Source of the DNA: Bacteroidota bacterium
GTDB lineage: Bacteria > Bacteroidota > Bacteroidia > UKL13-3
Assembly: GCA_037141455.1 (NCBI GenBank)
Contig: JBAXCN010000006.1
Location: forward strand, 2,156-66,155
Reading direction: 5' to 3'
DNA length: 64,000 nt
The notes under the pieces were generated by a model. It did not search any database. It saw nothing but the letters and a program-made list of their open reading frames with translations, and had not been told where the DNA came from. Shown here one piece after another: positions 3,922 to 54,786 of this stretch (position 1 is the stretch's first letter; every line of letters begins with the position of its first letter). The position numbers were made by a program, and so were the translations under genes.

Positions 3922-4022
3922 GCTTCTAGCCGCTGGCTTCTGACCTTTAGCTACTTTATTGTTATTTTTTTTAATGTTAAATTCAATGTTTTGCTGGCAG
4001 CCAGAGGCTAGTTGCTAGCAGC
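3922..4022. repeat. Inverted heptamer arrays (GCTTCTA/GCCGCTG/GCTTCTG ... GCCAGAG/GCTAGTT/GCTAGCA) around an AT-rich spacer
   Basis: 7-nt periodicity read directly; a similar element lies at 52336-52440. Confidence 0.7.
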
Positions 4023-10532: not shown

Positions 10533-10810
10533 AGCTGGCAATTGGCTGCTGGCAACTGGCTGCTGGCTTCTAGCAATTGGCTGCTGGCAAAAGTTCTATT
10601 GCCGTTTGGCTTTAGCCAACGGAAATGAAAAAGGTGCAGCAACAATTCCCTCACGCTTATGGCGTGATTGGCTGGCTTTGCGTGGCGAAGGGTGCCGAAA
10701 GCTTTCGGTATGGGGGATGTTTTTTGAAATTGCAATTGGCAACTGGCTGCTGGCTTCTTGTAATTGGCTGCAGGCAACTAGCTTCTGGCTTCTAGCAAAA
10801 GTTCTATTTC
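10533..10810. repeat. Composite repeat: two direct GCTGGCA/T heptamer arrays ending in GCAAAAGTTCTATT that enclose REP-like hairpins
   Basis: Arrays at about 10533-10600 and 10733-10810; CCGTTTGGCtttaGCCAACGG and CCGAAAGCTTTCGG between them. Confidence 0.75.
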
Positions 10811-47172: not shown

Positions 47173-47781
47173 TTATTTTATCAGTGCCAATCCTTCTAAC
47201 GAGGAAGAATCGTTGGGTGCAATTAACAATACTTTGTTAAACAAAAGCTTGGCTTCTTTCAGTTTTGTAAGCCTGTAATTGGTCCACGCCAACATGTGTA
47301 ACCCATCGTAGCTAAATGGGTACAAGTTTACCAAAAGGGTAAAACATTTGTGTGCTTTTTCGTATAATTTTCCGTTGTAATACACCATTCCTAAAGCATA
47401 CAATGCATAGCTGTTATTGGGGTCTATTTTTAAAATGGAATTATATTGGTTGGCTACTTCGTCCCACTCGTTTAAAAGCGAAAGTGGGTATATGTAGCCA
47501 AACTTTGCTTCAACAGAAAAAGGCATTAAATCAACTGCTATTTTATAAAACTTTTTCGAATCGTTATGCAAGCCTGCGCAATAATGTAACCAACCTAATC
47601 GTAAATTTATTTCGTACGATGTTGGGTTATAAACTTCCATTATATTGGCAATGGCTGCTGTGTAATTGGTTTTGTTTTCAAAACCTAAACTTGTGGCAAA
47701 TGCAACTTTTATTTTATCGTCTTGTGCATTGGCAAAGCCTATAAAAAGGCTAAATAGTAATACTAAAATTGTTTTTTTCAT
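47173..47781 (-). CDS. Secreted/periplasmic tetratricopeptide repeat protein
   Basis: Signal peptide; repeated TPR-like helices (LGWLHY, LKIDPNN, LGMVYY, LLIAPND). Confidence 0.85.
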   Translation of the reverse strand: MKKTILVLLFSLFIGFANAQDDKIKVAFATSLGFENKTNYTAAIANIMEVYNPTSYEINLRLGWLHYCAGLHNDSKKFYKIAVDLMPFSVEAKFGYIYPLSLLNEWDEVANQYNSILKIDPNNSYALYALGMVYYNGKLYEKAHKCFTLLVNLYPFSYDGLHMLAWTNYRLTKLKEAKLLFNKVLLIAPNDSSSLEGLALIK

Positions 47782-47790
47782 ATTGGGGTT

Positions 47791-48750
47791 TTATAAATTG
47801 TATTTAATTCCTAAAAATATTGAGTTAAAATTATAATTGTTTGTGGTTATAAAATCTTGTTTTCGTTCAAACTGATAAATAGTATAAATAAAAGCATTAT
47901 TTATAAATTCATATTTTAAATTTATGTTAGTTCTGTCAACGGTTTTATCAATGGAGTTATAAATAATGTATCCATCTTGGTCAGAAAAATTGCGGGCTGT
48001 AGTGTAAAAATAATCTGCGTTAATGGAAAGTTGATCGTTAATAATATAGGAAATGGAGGGTTTAATTAATGTACTTAAATCGTTGTTGTTATTAAAATGA
48101 AATACCCCCAAACCAAACACCAATTTTTCATTGTTTTTTATATCGTAAAACAATTCGCCACCTGCCATATACTGGTTATGTGCTTCTTTTAAATTATTTA
48201 ATTGGCTAAAAGCCAAAGCAGGTTTTAAATAAAGTTTATTTAACCTAAAAGTACTACTAATTGAGAAAAAATAATTGTTATTGGTAATATTTTCTGAAGG
48301 AATTACTTGACTTGGAGGTGCAGGTGGAATAGGTGGTGGAGGTACACTTGCCAATGTTTTGCTTTTTACATAAATGTAGGAGCCTGCAAAATTAAATTTT
48401 AAATTATTGTTGTGTTTGTACTCAAAATTAGCATAATAACTATGCTGGTTTAAATTGCCCCACCACATACTTTGCGATAAATAATTATAAGCATGAAACA
48501 TTAAAAGTTTTTTACTTAATTGGTGTTGCAATCCTATTTGGCTATTGTTTAAGTTGCCAATTGTATCTATTTCCGAACTAAACTTTACCCCTGTTTCTAT
48601 ATACAATTGGTTAAACAAATTGGTTTTACCTAACCTAAAATTATTGGTAAGTTTATAAACTTCGTAATTGCTTTTTGCTCCAAATAATATTTGCGCTTTA
48701 ATAGCATTTACATACATTAATAACAGTACAATTATTATAATATTTCGCAT
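47791..48750 (-). CDS. Putative outer-membrane beta-barrel protein with a Pro-rich loop
   Basis: Signal peptide, alternating aromatic strands, C-terminal FLGIKYNL; VPPPPIPPAPPS. Confidence 0.65.
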   Translation of the reverse strand: MRNIIIIVLLLMYVNAIKAQILFGAKSNYEVYKLTNNFRLGKTNLFNQLYIETGVKFSSEIDTIGNLNNSQIGLQHQLSKKLLMFHAYNYLSQSMWWGNLNQHSYYANFEYKHNNNLKFNFAGSYIYVKSKTLASVPPPPIPPAPPSQVIPSENITNNNYFFSISSTFRLNKLYLKPALAFSQLNNLKEAHNQYMAGGELFYDIKNNEKLVFGLGVFHFNNNNDLSTLIKPSISYIINDQLSINADYFYTTARNFSDQDGYIIYNSIDKTVDRTNINLKYEFINNAFIYTIYQFERKQDFITTNNYNFNSIFLGIKYNL

Positions 48751-50936
48751 TGGGCCACAGTTATTTTATTGGTTTTTTTTATCTCTATGGAGTTAATATT
48801 TCCTTCCATTATATGTATTTTAGCTTTGGTATCGTTACTGGTATTAAATAGCGTTTTTAGTTTTACCTCACTATTTAAAACTATGTTTTTAGTGTATAAA
48901 TAATCATCAATTTCAGAATAATTTAAAATGTATTGTGCTTTTAAAGTATTTTTAAAAGGCAATATAAAATCGTTGAAAAACCTTTTTGAAATATTAAAAA
49001 CTTGGTATACTGGCAACGAGTCTTCTATTACCATGTCTTTATAAAAACTAAAAACTACTTTGTTTAACACTGTATAAAAAGTATATAAAAAACTATTTTT
49101 ATTTCCTTCAAAATTGGTAAAATAAAACTTAATTCCATCGTTAACAAACCAAGCCAACGCCTTTGTTTTATAACAATAAATGTATGAATGGTTATTAATA
49201 TCTGTAAATACTTCCCATTTTACAAACTCGTTTTTATTGCCTGTTTTTATGTTCCAATTAATTTTTTTGCCGGGTATAAAGTGGAAAGCATTTTTTAATA
49301 AATTGTTCAATGAAGCATTGGCAACTATTTCATTTTCTAACGGAATTCCACTTGAATAATAAATGTAATTGTCGTTTCTTTTAACTACATAATTACTTAA
49401 CGGATATTTTATAGTAGTGGCTTGTATTACCGAGGTTGATTGCAATTGAAAATGTATATGTGGCTCAGGCGAACGACCTGAATTGCCATTGTTTGCCAAC
49501 ATTTGTCCTTTGTACACATAATCGTTAATGGCAACTTTAAAACTATTTTTTTTAATGTGACTAATTTTAGAATACAACTGCTCCGCGTGCTTTATTATAA
49601 TAGTATTGCCCCAGTTTTGTTGCATGTTTACATCACCTACCAAGTTATCGTCAATGCCATCAATTATATCTATTACATACCCATCAGCCGGAGCTAAAAT
49701 TGGCAGCGCGTAACAGTAATAATCTTCTAAGTTGTTTCCTGGCAAACGAAATGTTTTAAGTTCATCGTCTTTTATTACAAAATCCCAAGCATATTGGTAT
49801 TCGTTTTTATGGGTAATGCTTCCATTTTGTCCCTGCGAAATAATCCATTCACCATAAAAAGGCAATCCTATTTTAAAATATACTTCATCGTTGTATCTTT
49901 CTTTTTCGTTTAGGTACCTATACAAGTTTTTTTCAGGTGAAAACAACTGAACTTGAGTCAGTTTTAATTTATCAGCTTTAACTCTATTATATAAAAAATA
50001 AAGCACAATTATAACCATTATATTAAATGGAAGCGAAAATACCGATAACCCCAAAACATTTAAAACTGTGGCTGATGCAGCTATAATTATTGAAATGATT
50101 GGTGCAATAATTATTACCATTAAAAACGAATAAGCATTTGCCAATAAAAAATAACCACCAATTGCTATTGCAGCCAAAATAAAGTTAAAGCCTATGTACG
50201 AATAATTGATTAAATCAATGTTTCCTTGTAGTAAAATAAAAAAATAATAACCACTAATGAAACCAACAATTGAAAGTAAAAACGCAATTCTGGAAAATAT
50301 TAAAAGACCAATTACTATTAAAGAGCCTGCAATAATATTGTATTGAAAAATAATTGCTCCCAACGATTTCAAATAAACTTCAACCAAATGTGGCAATACA
50401 ATACTATCGTAAAAATGATAGGCAGTTACCATTTCCGAACCACCAATTCTTAGTAAATCGTTGTAAACAAAAATACCTCTGTCGTTATTTATTAATGGCG
50501 CAAAATGTGGCGTAGCCAATTGAATTAACCATACTACAAACAAAAAAGGCAAACTTAAATAAGGTAATTTTTTGTTTGCTTGCAAGCCTGCAATTACAAT
50601 AGTAATTATAAATGTTACAAAACTAATAAATGCAGTAAAAACAACTAATTGCCAGCTTGGCTGAAAAGTATAACCTATAAATAAGCCAACCAATAAACTA
50701 TTAAAACCATAGTACCCTTTTGCTACATAAGTTTGGTTAAAGTTTAAAATATGTGCAAATACATTTGTTAAAACTACAGCTAATAGACCATAAACCCCTA
50801 CATATACATCAATAAATGATGCAATTAAAACAAAGAAGGCCAACCAATAACTATCAGCTAAAAACAATTGGGAATAGCTGTTAAGCAATCCATTTGTATG
50901 GTTTTTTAAATGATATTTAAGGTCTATTAATTTCAA
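48735..50936 (-). CDS. Urea-transporter-family membrane domain fused to an M23 peptidase and a C-terminal domain
   Basis: NSYSQLF, GYYGFNSLLVG, LSLPF, GAIIFQ, GFNFIL and FSLPF (UT repeats); H...YAWDF, APADG, NWGN and GNSGRSPEPHIHFQ (M23). Confidence 0.85.
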   Translation of the reverse strand: MKLIDLKYHLKNHTNGLLNSYSQLFLADSYWLAFFVLIASFIDVYVGVYGLLAVVLTNVFAHILNFNQTYVAKGYYGFNSLLVGLFIGYTFQPSWQLVVFTAFISFVTFIITIVIAGLQANKKLPYLSLPFLFVVWLIQLATPHFAPLINNDRGIFVYNDLLRIGGSEMVTAYHFYDSIVLPHLVEVYLKSLGAIIFQYNIIAGSLIVIGLLIFSRIAFLLSIVGFISGYYFFILLQGNIDLINYSYIGFNFILAAIAIGGYFLLANAYSFLMVIIIAPIISIIIAASATVLNVLGLSVFSLPFNIMVIIVLYFLYNRVKADKLKLTQVQLFSPEKNLYRYLNEKERYNDEVYFKIGLPFYGEWIISQGQNGSITHKNEYQYAWDFVIKDDELKTFRLPGNNLEDYYCYALPILAPADGYVIDIIDGIDDNLVGDVNMQQNWGNTIIIKHAEQLYSKISHIKKNSFKVAINDYVYKGQMLANNGNSGRSPEPHIHFQLQSTSVIQATTIKYPLSNYVVKRNDNYIYYSSGIPLENEIVANASLNNLLKNAFHFIPGKKINWNIKTGNKNEFVKWEVFTDINNHSYIYCYKTKALAWFVNDGIKFYFTNFEGNKNSFLYTFYTVLNKVVFSFYKDMVIEDSLPVYQVFNISKRFFNDFILPFKNTLKAQYILNYSEIDDYLYTKNIVLNSEVKLKTLFNTSNDTKAKIHIMEGNINSIEIKKTNKITVAQCEIL

Positions 50937-50961: not shown

Positions 50962-52320
50962 TTAAAGTTTAAATTCTTTTAAATATGCTGGAGTTTCTTC
51001 TAAACTATTCATGTACTCCAAAGTTTCTTTTTTACGAATTAAATGAGGTTTACCATCCATGTCTATTATTACTACATTTGGCCTCATAGATATAAATTGC
51101 ATCCACTGAGTCATGTTGTAAGCACCTACAGTATGCACTACCACATTATCGCCTTTTTTCATTGGTGGTAAAGTTACATTTTCTCTTATTACATCAATGT
51201 TCATACACAATGGGCCATAAATTACTGAATCTTCGGTATAATGGCTAAACTCTTGCGCTGGTGATATTTTATGTTCGTACCAAAACGAAGTAAATAATAA
51301 ATTTACACCAAAATCCATAATGGTAGCTTTGCGTCCATCGCTTAATCGTTTGTTAGCCAAAACAGTTCCCAATAAATAACCTGCATCATCAACCAACGAA
51401 CGGCCACTTTCTAATATTAATAATGGTAATTCATCTTTACTGTAATCCGAATTTAATAAAGCCGAACAGATAGCTTCTGCATAATCATCAAAACTTGGCA
51501 CCGAATCGGCACCCATTAAATAAGAACCTTTAAGCGTATTGCGCGAAGCAAACCCTCCTCCCATATCAATATAAGTAATGTTTTTGCCAAACTTAGTTTT
51601 TATATGATAAGCCAAATCGGATAACTTGGTAGCTGCAACAGCATAAGCACTTGGGGTTAACATAAATGTTCCAATATGCGTATGCAAGCCTATTAAATCC
51701 ATTTTATCGGTTAAAATAATTTTGTTAATGGCATCCCAAGCTTGACCACTTTCATAATTAAATCCAAACCTATCCCACATTGGGTAAACTCCAGTATCCA
51801 TGTTTACTCTAATGGCTACTTTAGGTCGCTTTTTTAACTCTTCGGTTAACTCAATAATTCTGTATAGTTCATCTAAATGATCAATATGAATCATTGACTC
51901 ATTGTTAATGGCCAGTACTAAATCTTCATCAGTTTTATCAGGCCCATTAAATATTATTTTATTGCCGGGTACTCCGTTTAATAAAGCTTTTTTATACTCG
52001 AATCCCGAAACCACTTCTGACCAACTTCCTTCTTGGTGAAAAACGCTACAAATGGCATTGTTATAATGTGTTTTATAACTCCATGCAAACTGCACCTTTG
52101 GATACCTTGTAGTAAATGCACGTACTGCATCTTTGTATGTTTTTCTAATAGTTTGCTCACTCATTACGAATAATGGCGAACCAAATTCTGCTATTAAATC
52201 TTTTACTTTTGCACCATCTATATTGGTAAATGGAGTGTACTCAGTTCTAGTACCGTACTTGTTCATTACGCCAGTATTTAATTTTTTAATTACTGGTCTT
52301 TCATATCTTAGTTTTTCCAT
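50962..52320 (-). CDS. Fold-III PLP-dependent decarboxylase (LysA/Orn-DAP-Arg family), substrate uncertain
   Basis: SYKT, EVVSGFE, FNGPDK, HTHIG, DMGGGF, ESGR, GPLCMNID and GAY motifs. Confidence 0.9.
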   Translation of the reverse strand: MEKLRYERPVIKKLNTGVMNKYGTRTEYTPFTNIDGAKVKDLIAEFGSPLFVMSEQTIRKTYKDAVRAFTTRYPKVQFAWSYKTHYNNAICSVFHQEGSWSEVVSGFEYKKALLNGVPGNKIIFNGPDKTDEDLVLAINNESMIHIDHLDELYRIIELTEELKKRPKVAIRVNMDTGVYPMWDRFGFNYESGQAWDAINKIILTDKMDLIGLHTHIGTFMLTPSAYAVAATKLSDLAYHIKTKFGKNITYIDMGGGFASRNTLKGSYLMGADSVPSFDDYAEAICSALLNSDYSKDELPLLILESGRSLVDDAGYLLGTVLANKRLSDGRKATIMDFGVNLLFTSFWYEHKISPAQEFSHYTEDSVIYGPLCMNIDVIRENVTLPPMKKGDNVVVHTVGAYNMTQWMQFISMRPNVVIIDMDGKPHLIRKKETLEYMNSLEETPAYLKEFKL

Positions 52321-52335
52321 TGTTTTTATGTTTAA

Positions 52336-52440
52336 GCCTCTGGCTGCTGGCTGCTGGCCTCTAGCTAATTTATTTTACTTGGTTGAATATTATTTTACTT
52401 TTTGTATTTGTTAGAAGCCAGAGGCCAGAAGCTAGAAGCC
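52336..52440. repeat. Inverted heptamer arrays (GCCTCTG/GCTGCTG/GCTGCTG/GCCTCTA ... GTTAGAA/GCCAGAG/GCCAGAA/GCTAGAA)
   Basis: Read directly; same family as 3922-4022. Confidence 0.75.
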
Positions 52441-52442
52441 AA

Positions 52443-53489
52443 CTATAGCTCCCCTACCGTTGATATCTGTTCAAATTCTTTTAAATCTACAATCATATCG
52501 TACGAGTAACGAATAAACATTTTACCTATTTCATAATCGCCAAATGGTTCAACAGGTAAGTTTAAAGCTAATTTTACTAGTGCTTCTGGTTGGTTATGTC
52601 CGCAGCCGGCAGCTAAGTATACCCAAGCAGGAAAACGTGGATTTATTTCTAATAAATAATATTTGTTTTCGGCTGTTTTAATAAACTCTAACTCCATTCC
52701 GCCTCGCCACTTCGATGACGAAATAACTTGTTTAGCAATATTTACCAACTCATCGTCATCTAATGAAATACCCGCCCAAGCTTTGCCTTTGTCGGTAATA
52801 AATAACTTGCGCATGGGCACTGCACTAATGGCATTTCCTTTTCCATCGCCCAATGCTGTAACGTTTACCTCACTTCCAAAAACATATTCTTGTATAATAA
52901 TAGGCAAGCCCCACTTAGTGCTTAGTTTATTAAAATAATTCCCAACTTGTTCGGCATTGTATGCAATATATGCTTCATAAAACTTGCCTTTAACCACCAT
53001 TGGGTAAGTAAACTCACTGGCAATAGTTGGTATTTCGGCAGTGCTAAACATCATTTTACTAAATGGAACATGTACGCCATGTTTTTCGCCAAATTCATAC
53101 AAGTTGGCTTTATGTCTTTCGTCAAATTGCTCTTGTGTTGGTAAAAACATGTTTATAGCTAATTCTGATTTAAGCCTATTTTCTATTTTCATAAAATTAG
53201 CTAATTCAGCATCAAAATTTGGAATAATTACATCAATCATTTCTTGCACATTTATGTAGTTCAATCGTTCCATTAATGAATCAATTCCAGAACCTGGCAA
53301 AGGAATTTGGTAAGATTTATCAACCAAATTGTGCATGTATAATCCTGGCTCCAATGTTTCATAACTCAAGCCTATAATCCTTACATCAAAATCTTTGCTT
53401 TCTTTTAAAGCACGTATTACTGGTATTCCTGGGCCAGGACTATCAATATTGTTTAATCCCGATACTGCTACCGTTATTTTTTGTTTCAT
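52443..53489 (-). CDS. ATP-grasp carboxylate-amine ligase
   Basis: YPMVVKG, IIQEYV.G.E, GMELE and LLEINPRFPAW motifs. Confidence 0.9.
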   Translation of the reverse strand: MKQKITVAVSGLNNIDSPGPGIPVIRALKESKDFDVRIIGLSYETLEPGLYMHNLVDKSYQIPLPGSGIDSLMERLNYINVQEMIDVIIPNFDAELANFMKIENRLKSELAINMFLPTQEQFDERHKANLYEFGEKHGVHVPFSKMMFSTAEIPTIASEFTYPMVVKGKFYEAYIAYNAEQVGNYFNKLSTKWGLPIIIQEYVFGSEVNVTALGDGKGNAISAVPMRKLFITDKGKAWAGISLDDDELVNIAKQVISSSKWRGGMELEFIKTAENKYYLLEINPRFPAWVYLAAGCGHNQPEALVKLALNLPVEPFGDYEIGKMFIRYSYDMIVDLKEFEQISTVGEL

Positions 53490-53510
53490 CACTTTTGTTT
53501 TAAATAAAAA

Positions 53511-53759
53511 TTATTCAGTTTCCTCTGCAACTTGGTTGTTTTGCAACATCATTACAAAATCGTAATAATCTTTTTCAAAAGTTGATTCATCGGCATTATA
53601 TTTAGTTAAAATAGTTTTTCTAATTTCGTCTTTGCCTTTATCGTCTTTTAGCATTCTTATTATCTCTAAACCAATGGGATTAGTGCTAAATGAATCGCCT
53701 GTAGTAGGATTAAAAATAAACCCTGATTCACTGATTGCTACATTCTTTTTTATTTTCAT
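53511..53759 (-). CDS. Stand-alone PqqD-family/RRE peptide-binding protein
   Basis: About 82 aa: GFIFNPTTGDSFSTNPIGLEII.ML...I...Y..D....EKD..DF...L, the three-strand plus three-helix RRE pattern. Confidence 0.85.
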   Translation of the reverse strand: MKIKKNVAISESGFIFNPTTGDSFSTNPIGLEIIRMLKDDKGKDEIRKTILTKYNADESTFEKDYYDFVMMLQNNQVAEETE

Positions 53760-53960
53760 AATTGTACGTTTAAAAAATGCTAAATTATTCAATACAACAT
53801 TGCATTTTTATTAAAATGATTCTGTTATAATATTTAAAATATTTGTTATAAAATTAGGTTTATTGCTTTTGGTTGTTGAGGAAAACATTCGCTGAAATAA
53901 GTTCGAAGTGGTGTTTAGGCTCCCCTCAAAGATTAATTTCAGTTAATGGTAAACAATAAT

Positions 53961-54195: not shown

Positions 54196-54786
54196 TTAAA
54201 TCAATTGATCCAAAGGAATTCTTGGCTTTATTGGCAACAATTTGTATTCACTCACTGAAAAGTTTGTAATTTGTTTAAACTGATTGCTTAAATACTGAAC
54301 ACTGCTATAACCCATTTGGTATGAAATTTCGCTTAAGGTCATTTCGTTATAACTTAGTAGTTCCTTCACCCTTTCAATTTTAACTAATATAATATATTTT
54401 TCTAATGTAACCGGGGCATTATCGCTAAACAATTTACTCAAAAAACTATAGGGTTGTGCTAGCTTGTCGCTTAAATAATCTGAATTTCTTATTATAGTAT
54501 TTAAATTATTTCCGTAATAAATCATTTCTAAAACTGCTACTTTTATTGCTTCAAATAAGGCAGTTTCTTTATCATATATTAAATCAAAACCTAACTCTTG
54601 AAGCTTTTTTTGAAAGTTTATAAAATCGAATTTACCTTCTTTTAATTGAACTTGTGCAGCACCTAAATATACTTTTTCAATTAAAATATTTGGAATAGTT
54701 CCAAGCAAATTTTGTACTAACGAAATACACCTAGAACTAACCATGTTCCTAATTTGTAATACAATATATTTATTAGTATCATTCAT
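54196..54786 (-). CDS. AraC family regulator with HMA-like N-terminus
   Basis: IRNMVSSRC; KIERVKELL, LSEI...MGYSSVQYLSNQFK motifs. Confidence 0.9.
   Translation of the reverse strand: MNDTNKYIVLQIRNMVSSRCISLVQNLLGTIPNILIEKVYLGAAQVQLKEGKFDFINFQKKLQELGFDLIYDKETALFEAIKVAVLEMIYYGNNLNTIIRNSDYLSDKLAQPYSFLSKLFSDNAPVTLEKYIILVKIERVKELLSYNEMTLSEISYQMGYSSVQYLSNQFKQITNFSVSEYKLLPIKPRIPLDQLI

Follow-up and report, generated by a model that had tools for sequence, protein, structure and literature searches.

RiPP recognition elements (RREs; RiPPs are peptides that are ribosomally synthesized and then modified post-translationally) serve as class-independent beacons of RiPP clusters, and their ligand is assumed to be a small precursor peptide. 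What is read by the RRE of an operon in which such a precursor is missing? This question is raised by a window of 64,000 nucleotides (the whole stretch of DNA that was analysed; positions 2,156 to 66,155 of the forward strand of contig JBAXCN010000006.1, assembly GCA_037141455.1) from a Bacteroidota bacterium of the lineage UKL13-3, in which genes for a discrete RRE and an ATP-grasp ligase precede one for a pyridoxal phosphate (PLP) decarboxylase. The best-supported reading of the sequence comparisons, and in our judgement a probable one, is that the first ~30 residues of the decarboxylase constitute a cis-encoded leader that docks the RRE of its own operon. It draws on homology, the correspondence of individual residues, the conservation of the operon, a single natural exception, two events of covariation and a complex prediction that is weak.

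The open reading frame (ORF) of the decarboxylase (positions 50962 to 52320, minus strand) encodes 452 amino acids from an ATG start. With its PF02784 and PF00278 domains, the protein falls in the LysA/FslC/BtrK clade of PLP decarboxylases. It scores 228.7 bits with the FslC profile (cut-off 500) and 218.3 bits with the lysA profile (cut-off 297.9), and since both scores lie below the equivalog cut-offs it is neither a LysA nor an FslC equivalog; a separate LysA-like gene, with 25% identity to the window decarboxylase, is located on another contig of the same genome. The best solved relative is FslC (7kh2, E 2.6e-99). In an alignment of 75 sequences, K83 (the PLP lysine), H213, G254-256, E304, R307, C372, D376 and Y401 are invariant, so that all catalytic residues are kept and the enzyme is predicted to be catalytically intact. 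Matches to the profiles of LysA, FslC and solved decarboxylases begin only at residues 27 to 34, hence the family fold is preceded by an extension of ~30 residues. This agrees with the initial annotation, which had placed its quoted enzyme start ahead of the LysA-like start; the quoted residues match the first 23 of the ORF, and positions 52252 to 52320 encode exactly residues 1 to 23.

Two conserved segments are found in this tail (residues 1 to 30, positions 52231 to 52320, minus strand). The first, Y6-E-R-P9-V-I11 (52288 to 52305, minus strand), fits the leader motif [Y/W]xxPx[L/V/I/F/A], and the second, G17-x-x-N20-K21-Y22-G23 (52252 to 52272, minus strand), places Lys21 twelve residues past P9. 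That motifs of the YxxPxL type are recognized by RREs, as had been stated for this locus, is established in the available text of PMC13381572 and PMC10368454. The tail therefore carries the recognition motif of a leader, while a leader is otherwise a short, separately encoded gene product and the motif here is the N-terminus of a 452-residue enzyme. In the loose form [YWF]xxPx[ILVMFA], the pattern occurs by chance in 764 of 20000 random 30-mers of the protein's own composition (3.8%), and it is present in the first 30 residues of 1 of 48 long window ORFs. Because of this chance rate a lone occurrence means little, and it is conservation that decides.

The motif was found in 119 and NK[FY]G in all 120 of the closest homologues (the best 120 of 7969 matches), the sole miss (P0008) being a 435-residue form that begins inside the tail. 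Orthologues were also compared in three sets of loci, namely the window with 25 Bacteroidota loci, 80 loci from named genomes and 80 metagenome loci. In these sets, 25/25, 78/79 and 77/77 complete N-termini (180/181 in total) have the motif at a fixed distance from the fold, locus L091 being the only miss. P9 is invariant in the 75-sequence alignment, G17, N20, K21 and G23 are each at least 90% conserved, and in its conservation G-x-x-N-K-[FY]-G equals the docking motif. The residue twelve positions past the proline (P+12) is lysine in 163 of 177 tails (25/25, 76/78 and 62/74), Thr or Ser in some distant subclades, and Arg, Gln, Gly or Ala in others. The tail has this one conserved lysine, and no acidic residue is conserved across phyla. 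Tailed orthologues occur in more than 12 phyla, their carriers including Bacteroidota, Gamma- and Zetaproteobacteria, Nitrospirota, Aquificota, Melainabacteria, Myxococcota, Cloacimonadota, Fibrobacterota and Ignavibacteriota. The observation of the tail is confirmed and is beyond chance.

More distant relatives look different. Among 301 Bacteroidota genomes, 27 (that of the window included) carry an orthologue with E <=1e-140 that aligns from residues 1 to 5, and the remaining genomes hold LysA-like genes only, with 25-33% identity and alignments from about residue 33. Of 150 representative relatives, 67 have N-termini too short for the tail, 40 have long ones, 30 of these with the motif, and 43 are fragment-like and lack the N-terminal box. 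At three distant LysA-like loci (L058 to L060) the match to the window decarboxylase begins at residue 39, 6 and 8, respectively, and its partner genes were not found there by tblastn at 1e-3.

The candidate receptor of this motif is the product of a 93-residue ORF that starts from TTG (53511 to 53792, minus strand); an ATG at 53759, giving 82 residues, is the likely start. The protein matches the PqqD family PF05402 with 36.5 bits (cut-off 23.4) and is the sole PqqD match in the genome. In a search with a profile of 50 operon PqqD proteins, the nearest solved relatives were the lasso peptide B1 proteins TbiB1 (7.6e-11), TfuB1 (8.8e-9) and PbaB1 (3.8e-5), followed by PqqD (1e-3) and LppB (0.017). 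According to the available text of PMC13381572, the leader motif lies as an extended strand in an RRE cleft that is split by a conserved Phe (LppB F74, PbaB1 F83), an Asp four residues earlier (LppB D70) holds the Tyr hydroxyl, the Trp-binding PbaB1 has Gln at that position, and the leader portion past the motif makes no contact with the RRE. HMMER alignments match Asp64 (codon 53568-53570) and Phe68 (codon 53556-53558) of the window RRE with LppB D70/F74 and PbaB1 Q79/F83. Judged by sequence, the operon RRE is of the lasso-B1 kind, with its leader-contact residues kept.

A lasso peptide pathway was rejected all the same. The lasso protease family Transglut_core3 was not found in the genome, which is 99.95% complete, the only Asn_synthase match lies on another contig, so that the operon holds no lasso cyclase, and the NCBIfam model lasso_PqqD_Strm gives 26.9 bits (cut-off 70). 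The available text of the RRE-Finder paper likewise mentions discrete lasso-type RREs without co-occurring lasso machinery, which may be from uncharacterised classes.

The RRE, the tail and their partner genes travel together. The ATP-grasp gene (52443 to 53492, minus strand) lies between the RRE and the decarboxylase genes, and downstream of the latter follows a gene (48735 to 50936, minus strand) for a 733-residue protein with a urea-transporter-like (UT) membrane domain (residues 17-314), a Peptidase_M23 metallopeptidase domain (residues 412-500) and an unassigned C-terminal region. Across phyla the order is PqqD, ATP-grasp, decarboxylase, UT fusion, a variable gene in some cases and a tetratricopeptide repeat (TPR) protein, frequently with overlapping stop and start codons. 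Where at least 2 kb of upstream sequence were at hand, a PqqD gene stands upstream on the same strand in 21/22, 64/66 and 57/58 loci of the three sets (142/146 in total) and an ATP-grasp gene in 22/22, 64/66 and 58/58 (144/146); the UT gene immediately follows that of the decarboxylase in 25/25, 68/72 and 48/50 evaluable loci. Four loci have no adjacent PqqD gene. In two of them, L057 and L128, an operon-type PqqD is located elsewhere in the genome, and in L128 the ATP-grasp and UT fusion genes are also scattered on other contigs. L182 is a metagenome contig. The fourth, L091, is an orphan decarboxylase: its tail is the only one without the motif aromatic, with NKFG kept, and in its genome, whose completeness is not stated, an operon-type PqqD, the ATP-grasp and the UT protein were not found, the single PqqD present there failing to match the operon PqqD profile. 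It is a single case. It had been asked of this locus whether the two segments are conserved only in RRE-linked copies. They are conserved in essentially every copy, with an adjoining RRE and ATP-grasp in the proportions given above, but "only" is not cleanly passed, as tail and operon are almost fully confounded and L091 is the sole informative exception.

Within the operon, the tail and the RRE also appear to vary together. The comparison covered 159 RRE-tail pairs and a tree of the decarboxylase bodies. Tails with Tyr in the motif face an Asp at the RRE position of Asp64 in 111 of 112 pairs (one His), those with Phe in 0 of 11 (Tyr in 9, His in 1, Gly in 1), and those with Trp (35 pairs) in 23, with Ser in 8, Asn in 2, and Glu and Gly in one each. 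Two independent changes from Tyr to Phe are placed on the tree, one in a Bacteroidota clade and one at L150, within the divergent operon type, and the RRE Asp was lost at both. Both pairs run in the direction expected of a hydrogen bond from the Tyr hydroxyl to Asp, with statistical significance out of reach (sign test p 0.5).

Structure predictions are compatible with a tail that needs a partner. An AlphaFold2 (AF2) model from 75 sequences has a predicted template modelling score (pTM) of 0.88 and a mean predicted local distance difference test score (pLDDT) of 91.3, above 90, for the enzyme body. The tail is devoid of secondary structure; by block, its pLDDT averages 59, 41 and 60, and it is under 50 for residues 11-25. 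A strongly conserved yet predicted-disordered tail fits a segment that folds on a partner. When the RRE was modelled together with residues 1-32, the interaction prediction score from aligned errors (ipSAE) was 0.51 (runs 0.50, 0.51 and 0.53), the highest value among three controls being 0.01, with a contact agreement of at least 87% between runs and a partner pLDDT of 58 or more. Of the pairs used for calibration, 58 of 80 solved ones and 2 of 110 mismatched ones attained the mark, and scores of 0.60 or below were seen in only 7 of the 80 solved pairs together with both passing mismatches. The prediction lends weak support to docking. The pass may also reflect a likeness to solved RRE-leader complexes remembered by the model.

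A conserved precursor encoded elsewhere in the operon would speak against a fused leader, and none emerged. On the operon strand, ORFs of 12-90 residues were collected from 1.5 kb upstream of PqqD to 1.5 kb beyond the last operon gene in about 100 loci, a scan that left out ORFs below 12 residues, the other strand and very divergent peptides. Among the 2508 small ORFs obtained, 77 have the loose motif, none of them recurs, and no conserved family was found; in all-against-all blastp-short comparisons at 1e-4 only pairs from near-identical genomes were linked. A word search of 5.8 billion proteins with tail residues 1-45 returned no candidate of 24-79 residues, this search being insensitive as it requires three shared 5-mers. 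A separate precursor peptide was consequently rejected. The proposal that the missing precursor is fused to the enzyme, with the RRE docking on it, therefore stands in part, by the conserved motif, the missing precursor and the lasso-B1-like RRE with its contact residues, and finds weak backing in the complex prediction.

If the tail is docked, what is done to it? The ATP-grasp protein has 349 residues and belongs, by Pfam and profile matches, to the PRK12767/carbamoyl-phosphate-synthase-like group; its nucleotide- and Mg-binding positions K168, E282, N284 and R286 are invariant (alignment A4), and its best solved match is 2pn1 (E 2.5e-18). A graspetide was rejected, given no match named as a graspetide ligase (55 chains) and, where such a core would pair conserved Thr/Ser/Lys with Asp/Glu, one conserved lysine in the tail and no conserved acidic residue. 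In the UT protein, the M23 His/Asp/HxH positions, which bind the metal and act in catalysis, are at least 90% conserved in 90 sequences. A sister operon type in the metagenome set (L147-L174, L204, L206, L212 and L214) consists of a large TPR protein, PqqD, two ATP-grasps (joined in a single gene in L206 and L212), a decarboxylase whose tail has [YF]xxPx[ILVMFA] and the UT protein. In this type a SIR2 domain takes the place of M23; of 12 UT proteins tested, 10 carry it as a fusion and for one more (L214) it lies in the next gene. The domain scores best with models of CobB-type NAD-dependent protein deacylases (206 bits, under the cut-off of 320). A sirtuin needs NAD+ and hence acts in the cytoplasm, and since it occupies the same slot, the M23 domain of the fusion is probably located there as well. 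That one slot is taken by either a peptidase or an acyl-lysine deacylase suggests that a lysine receives an amide which is later taken off again, and the swap hints at a write/erase cycle on the tail lysine. It gives independent support to acylation of the Lys of MNKYG, an idea that is itself plausible.

From these features a sequence of events may be proposed. The motif Y6-x-x-P9-x-I11 would dock on the lasso-B1-like RRE by lying as an extended strand in its hydrophobic cleft, where the Tyr hydroxyl would be held by a hydrogen bond to Asp64 and the cleft split by Phe68, in the manner of solved RRE-leader complexes. The RRE would then present G17-x-x-N-K21-Y-G23 to the co-translated ATP-grasp, as gene order and the mode of action of B1 proteins lead us to expect. 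The ATP-grasp would acylate Lys21, and the amide would later be removed by the cytoplasmic domain fused to the UT protein, M23 here and the CobB-like sirtuin in the sister type. The tail would in this way provide a catalytically intact PLP decarboxylase with a site of reversible modification or a carrier site. We put forward the whole chain, from docking through presentation and acylation of Lys21 to removal of the amide, tentatively and at somewhat less than even likelihood.

Natural fusions of the ATP-grasp to the decarboxylase bear on this proposal. In P0131 and P0271-P0274 (824-871 residues) the tail motif has become an internal linker, in which [YW]xxPx[IL] is kept in 5 of 5 and NKFG in 2 of 5; these are single metagenomic proteins, in which a lost stop codon is possible. 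A pure tethering tag would be redundant in proteins that are already joined. The prevalence of lysine at P+12, and the amide- or carrier-linked amino acids on which the solved decarboxylase relatives FslC and BtrK act, likewise point to more than a tag. Among 6510 candidates from a search for longer proteins, 4 were ATP-grasp-decarboxylase fusions and other architectures did not occur; an RRE-decarboxylase fusion of ~540 residues would fall among the near-length matches, which were covered as the best 120 of 7969. The AF2 model of P0271 has a pTM of 0.60, with both domains confident and the linker and tail (332-403) under a pLDDT of 50, and on a contact between ATP-grasp and tail it says nothing.

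A further possibility carries the proposal towards a swinging arm, and we consider it improbable. While the RRE clamps the motif, the ATP-grasp would load an amino acid through its carboxyl onto the epsilon-amine of Lys21, with a second unit loaded where two ATP-grasps are present; the tethered amino acid would enter the decarboxylase active site of the same dimer and be decarboxylated, and the cytoplasmic M23 or sirtuin would unload the product at the mouth of a UT-like exporting channel. If this holds, RiPP leader logic would be joined to carrier-protein logic without a separate precursor or carrier gene.

Several observations weigh against docking and modification of the tail. Tail and operon membership are almost wholly confounded, so that RRE binding and a mere hallmark of the orthologous group are inseparable by association. 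The covariation rests on two independent events (p 0.5), and for the Trp-type clade (35 pairs) no consistent compensating change in the RRE was found. As AF2 was run on monomers, a tail packed on the other subunit of the dimer would look disordered too, and a complex score of 0.51 lies in a band that is more often wrong than right without a good prior. The model of P0271 did not put the tail in the ATP-grasp cleft. The ATP-grasp is nearest to carbamoyl-phosphate-synthase-like proteins, biotin carboxylases, PurD, PylC and Ddl, and no graspetide ligase, LysX or RimK was named among the 55 solved chains with E <=0.01. The Arg, Gln, Gly or Ala at P+12 of some distant tails is unlike an obligatory acyl acceptor; Thr and Ser could also accept an acyl group, these four residues could not. 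Very short precursors can also escape detection: the available text of PMC13622209 tells of a 21/22-mer YxxP peptide of the fosfazinomycin cluster that automated ORF retrieval had missed.

How do other explanations fare with the same evidence? The tail might be an assembly tag and never be modified: it would dock the RRE, which would also bind the ATP-grasp, and a metabolon of ATP-grasp, RRE and decarboxylase at the UT protein would channel a small molecule, for instance an N-acyl-ornithine-, lysine- or diaminopimelate-like amide that is decarboxylated in the manner of FslC. All the evidence for docking applies equally to this explanation; besides, the closest solved relative, FslC, has a free small molecule as its substrate, enzymes of small molecules are what the ATP-grasp resembles, and the lysine is absent at P+12 in distant tails. 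Against it, G-x-x-N-K-F-G is conserved as strongly as the docking motif, yet the leader past the motif does not contact the RRE (available text of PMC13381572). The motif is also retained in 5/5 ATP-grasp-decarboxylases that are already fused, and the swap from M23 to sirtuin is left unexplained. We hold an assembly tag to be rather unlikely. It is likewise unlikely that the tail has nothing to do with the RRE, being a structural or regulatory extension of the clade (a dimer-swapped arm, an active-site lid or a degron) while the RRE binds another peptide or protein. The confounding of tail and clade, the chance rate of 3.8%, the blindness of a monomer AF2 model to dimer contacts, the weak complex score and the escape of short precursors from ORF searches would all be in keeping with this. 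It has to contend, however, with a motif that fits the RRE-binding consensus residue by residue, its Tyr, Trp and Phe variants included, and with an RRE from the motif-reading clade that keeps the contact residues. Furthermore, the loss of the Tyr hydroxyl coincides twice with that of the RRE Asp, no conserved small ORF turned up in the loci scanned, and L091, the orphan decarboxylase without operon partners, has lost the motif aromatic.

The system might also be a true RiPP pathway with a sacrificial enzyme, the tail being leader and core, which is modified by the ATP-grasp, cut by M23 and exported through UT, and the decarboxylase a single-use precursor or tailoring enzyme. The order of leader motif, conserved segment and membrane-fused protease does resemble a RiPP pathway, and no other precursor was found. 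Yet one 452-residue enzyme would be consumed per product, sister operons have a sirtuin in place of the protease and a sirtuin cannot cut the backbone, the segment past the motif is short with one conserved nucleophile, and the decarboxylase retains all its catalytic residues; we regard this as very improbable.

Around this core, the window shows further features. After the UT-M23 gene follows a gene for a 319-residue protein (47791 to 48750, minus strand) with a signal-peptide-like N-terminus and no family match in Pfam/NCBIfam scans, and some Bacteroidota loci hold a weakly similar gene at this position. The last conserved gene of the operon encodes a TPR protein of 202 residues (47173 to 47781, minus strand), which matches TPR families and recurs after the UT gene. 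Upstream of the RRE gene lies one for an AraC-type protein (54196 to 54786, minus strand; assigned by Pfam) as a possible regulator; it is not conserved, with a similar upstream gene in 2 of 25 Bacteroidota loci (L033 and L041). In the UT-M23 protein, the C-terminal ~210 residues (~520-733) have no Pfam/NCBIfam match and are poorly conserved in 90 sequences. An anti-phage defence system was rejected, since PADLOC models gave 0 families for six window proteins and the UT-SIR2 protein; the large TPR protein gave generic TPR and PrimPol matches only. The ATP-grasp and decarboxylase genes, which abut or overlap in most other loci, are here separated by an unusual gap of 122 bp that is filled by a palindromic GC-rich element of 7-nt repeats (52336 to 52441), with arms of 26 nt that are 85% complementary. 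Its 16-nt core (with up to 3 mismatches) has 11 matches in the window against 0.11 expected, and the element stands at three intergenic sites (52336-52441, about 3922-4015 and 10545-10796). It looks like a genomic repeat similar to repetitive extragenic palindromes (REP) or miniature inverted-repeat transposable elements (MITE).

The operon is also varied in other lineages. In L061, L065, L066, L072, L074, L078, L082, L086 and L089, which comprise Zetaproteobacteria, Magnetococcales, a Desulfobulbaceae metagenome-assembled genome (MAG) and a gammaproteobacterium, a TetR-like protein of ~190 residues has the PqqD domain as its C-terminus (ORFs of 262-277 residues; PF00440 above its cut-off in 2 of 4 tested), which suggests that the RRE is also coupled to transcriptional control in these lineages. 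Cultured strains are among the carriers of the operon: L078 stems from Mariprofundus sp. EBB-1 in pure culture, and the operon is present in several isolates of Bacteroidota. L175 and L176 have an additional gene between PqqD and ATP-grasp, that of L175 encoding ~286 residues with hydrophobic stretches, and L168 has an inserted protein of 620 residues with a signal-peptide-like start. In L111, from a Thermovibrio MAG, a second and partial PqqD-ATP-grasp pair (188-920) lies ~2 kb upstream of a complete operon and appears to be a partial tandem duplication.

Known systems share parts of what is proposed here. In butirosin biosynthesis, the ATP-grasp enzyme BtrJ is paired with a LysA-like PLP decarboxylase whose substrate is a tethered amino acid. 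BtrK (7ru7, 2j66; entry name L-glutamyl-[BtrI acyl-carrier protein] decarboxylase) is a solved relative of the window decarboxylase (E 5e-56), and BtrI/BtrJ/BtrK resemble the present case in the combination of the two enzymes and in the tethered amino acid as substrate. They differ in having a separate acyl-carrier protein with a thioester and no known RRE; here no carrier gene was seen and the proposed tether is the lysine of the enzyme's own tail. FslC, the N-citrylornithine decarboxylase of rhizoferrin synthesis, is the closest relative among both solved structures and NCBIfam models, and it decarboxylates an amino acid whose side-chain amine already sits in an amide. However, the score of the window protein is less than half of the FslC cut-off, its match starts at profile position 27 so that the tail is not shared, and the partner of FslC is an NRPS-independent siderophore (NIS) synthetase instead of an ATP-grasp and an RRE. 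In the borosin OphMA the modified peptide segment is part of the enzyme, its core being C-terminal and self-methylated, and the ATP-grasp LysX loads its substrate on the protein arm LysW, a separate protein of which the C-terminal Glu is used. Unlike the system proposed here, neither OphMA nor LysW/LysX is known to use an RRE.

On the side of the RRE, the lasso B1 proteins (TbiB1, 5v1u/5v1v; TfuB1, 6jx3; PbaB1, 9x90) are likewise discrete PqqD-like winged helix-turn-helix domains and provide the best solved match, with a ligand motif [Y/W]xxPx[L/I/V] and the Asp/Phe contact positions kept. In contrast, the candidate ligand is here the N-terminus of a 452-residue enzyme and not a free precursor, and the operon has no lasso cyclase. 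LppB-LppA of Bacillota (9x8z), as far as described in the available text of PMC13381572, is another B1-like RRE recruited outside lasso pathways, and its pocket reads Tyr versus Trp in the motif; both Tyr and Trp clades occur here. LppA, however, is a separate small precursor with signal-peptidase-like processing, whereas the partners here are an ATP-grasp and a decarboxylase and no separate peptide was found. A description of the operon, or of an RRE motif on a decarboxylase, was not found in the literature searched, subscription journals and supplementary files being outside its scope.

Recognition of leaders by RREs is already known; what would be new is that an enzyme bears the leader and that the operon, which is not a lasso one, also encodes an ATP-grasp and a UT-M23 or UT-sirtuin protein. 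Judging by this case, a lasso-B1-type RRE seems to have been recruited for the reading of a leader motif on a full-size enzyme, in a compact operon that spans Bacteroidota, Proteobacteria, Aquificota, Melainabacteria, Myxococcota and other phyla. The swap of M23 for a CobB-like sirtuin on the same membrane protein yields a specific hypothesis, an acyl-lysine on the tail, and a simple, testable system for studying how an RRE hands over its substrate is offered by a single enzyme, a single RRE and a single ligase, with a motif of six residues that can be point-mutated. If the docking reading is true, it would explain a class of "orphan" discrete RREs that genome-mining tools take as false positives, and it would extend leader-peptide logic from peptides to proteins.

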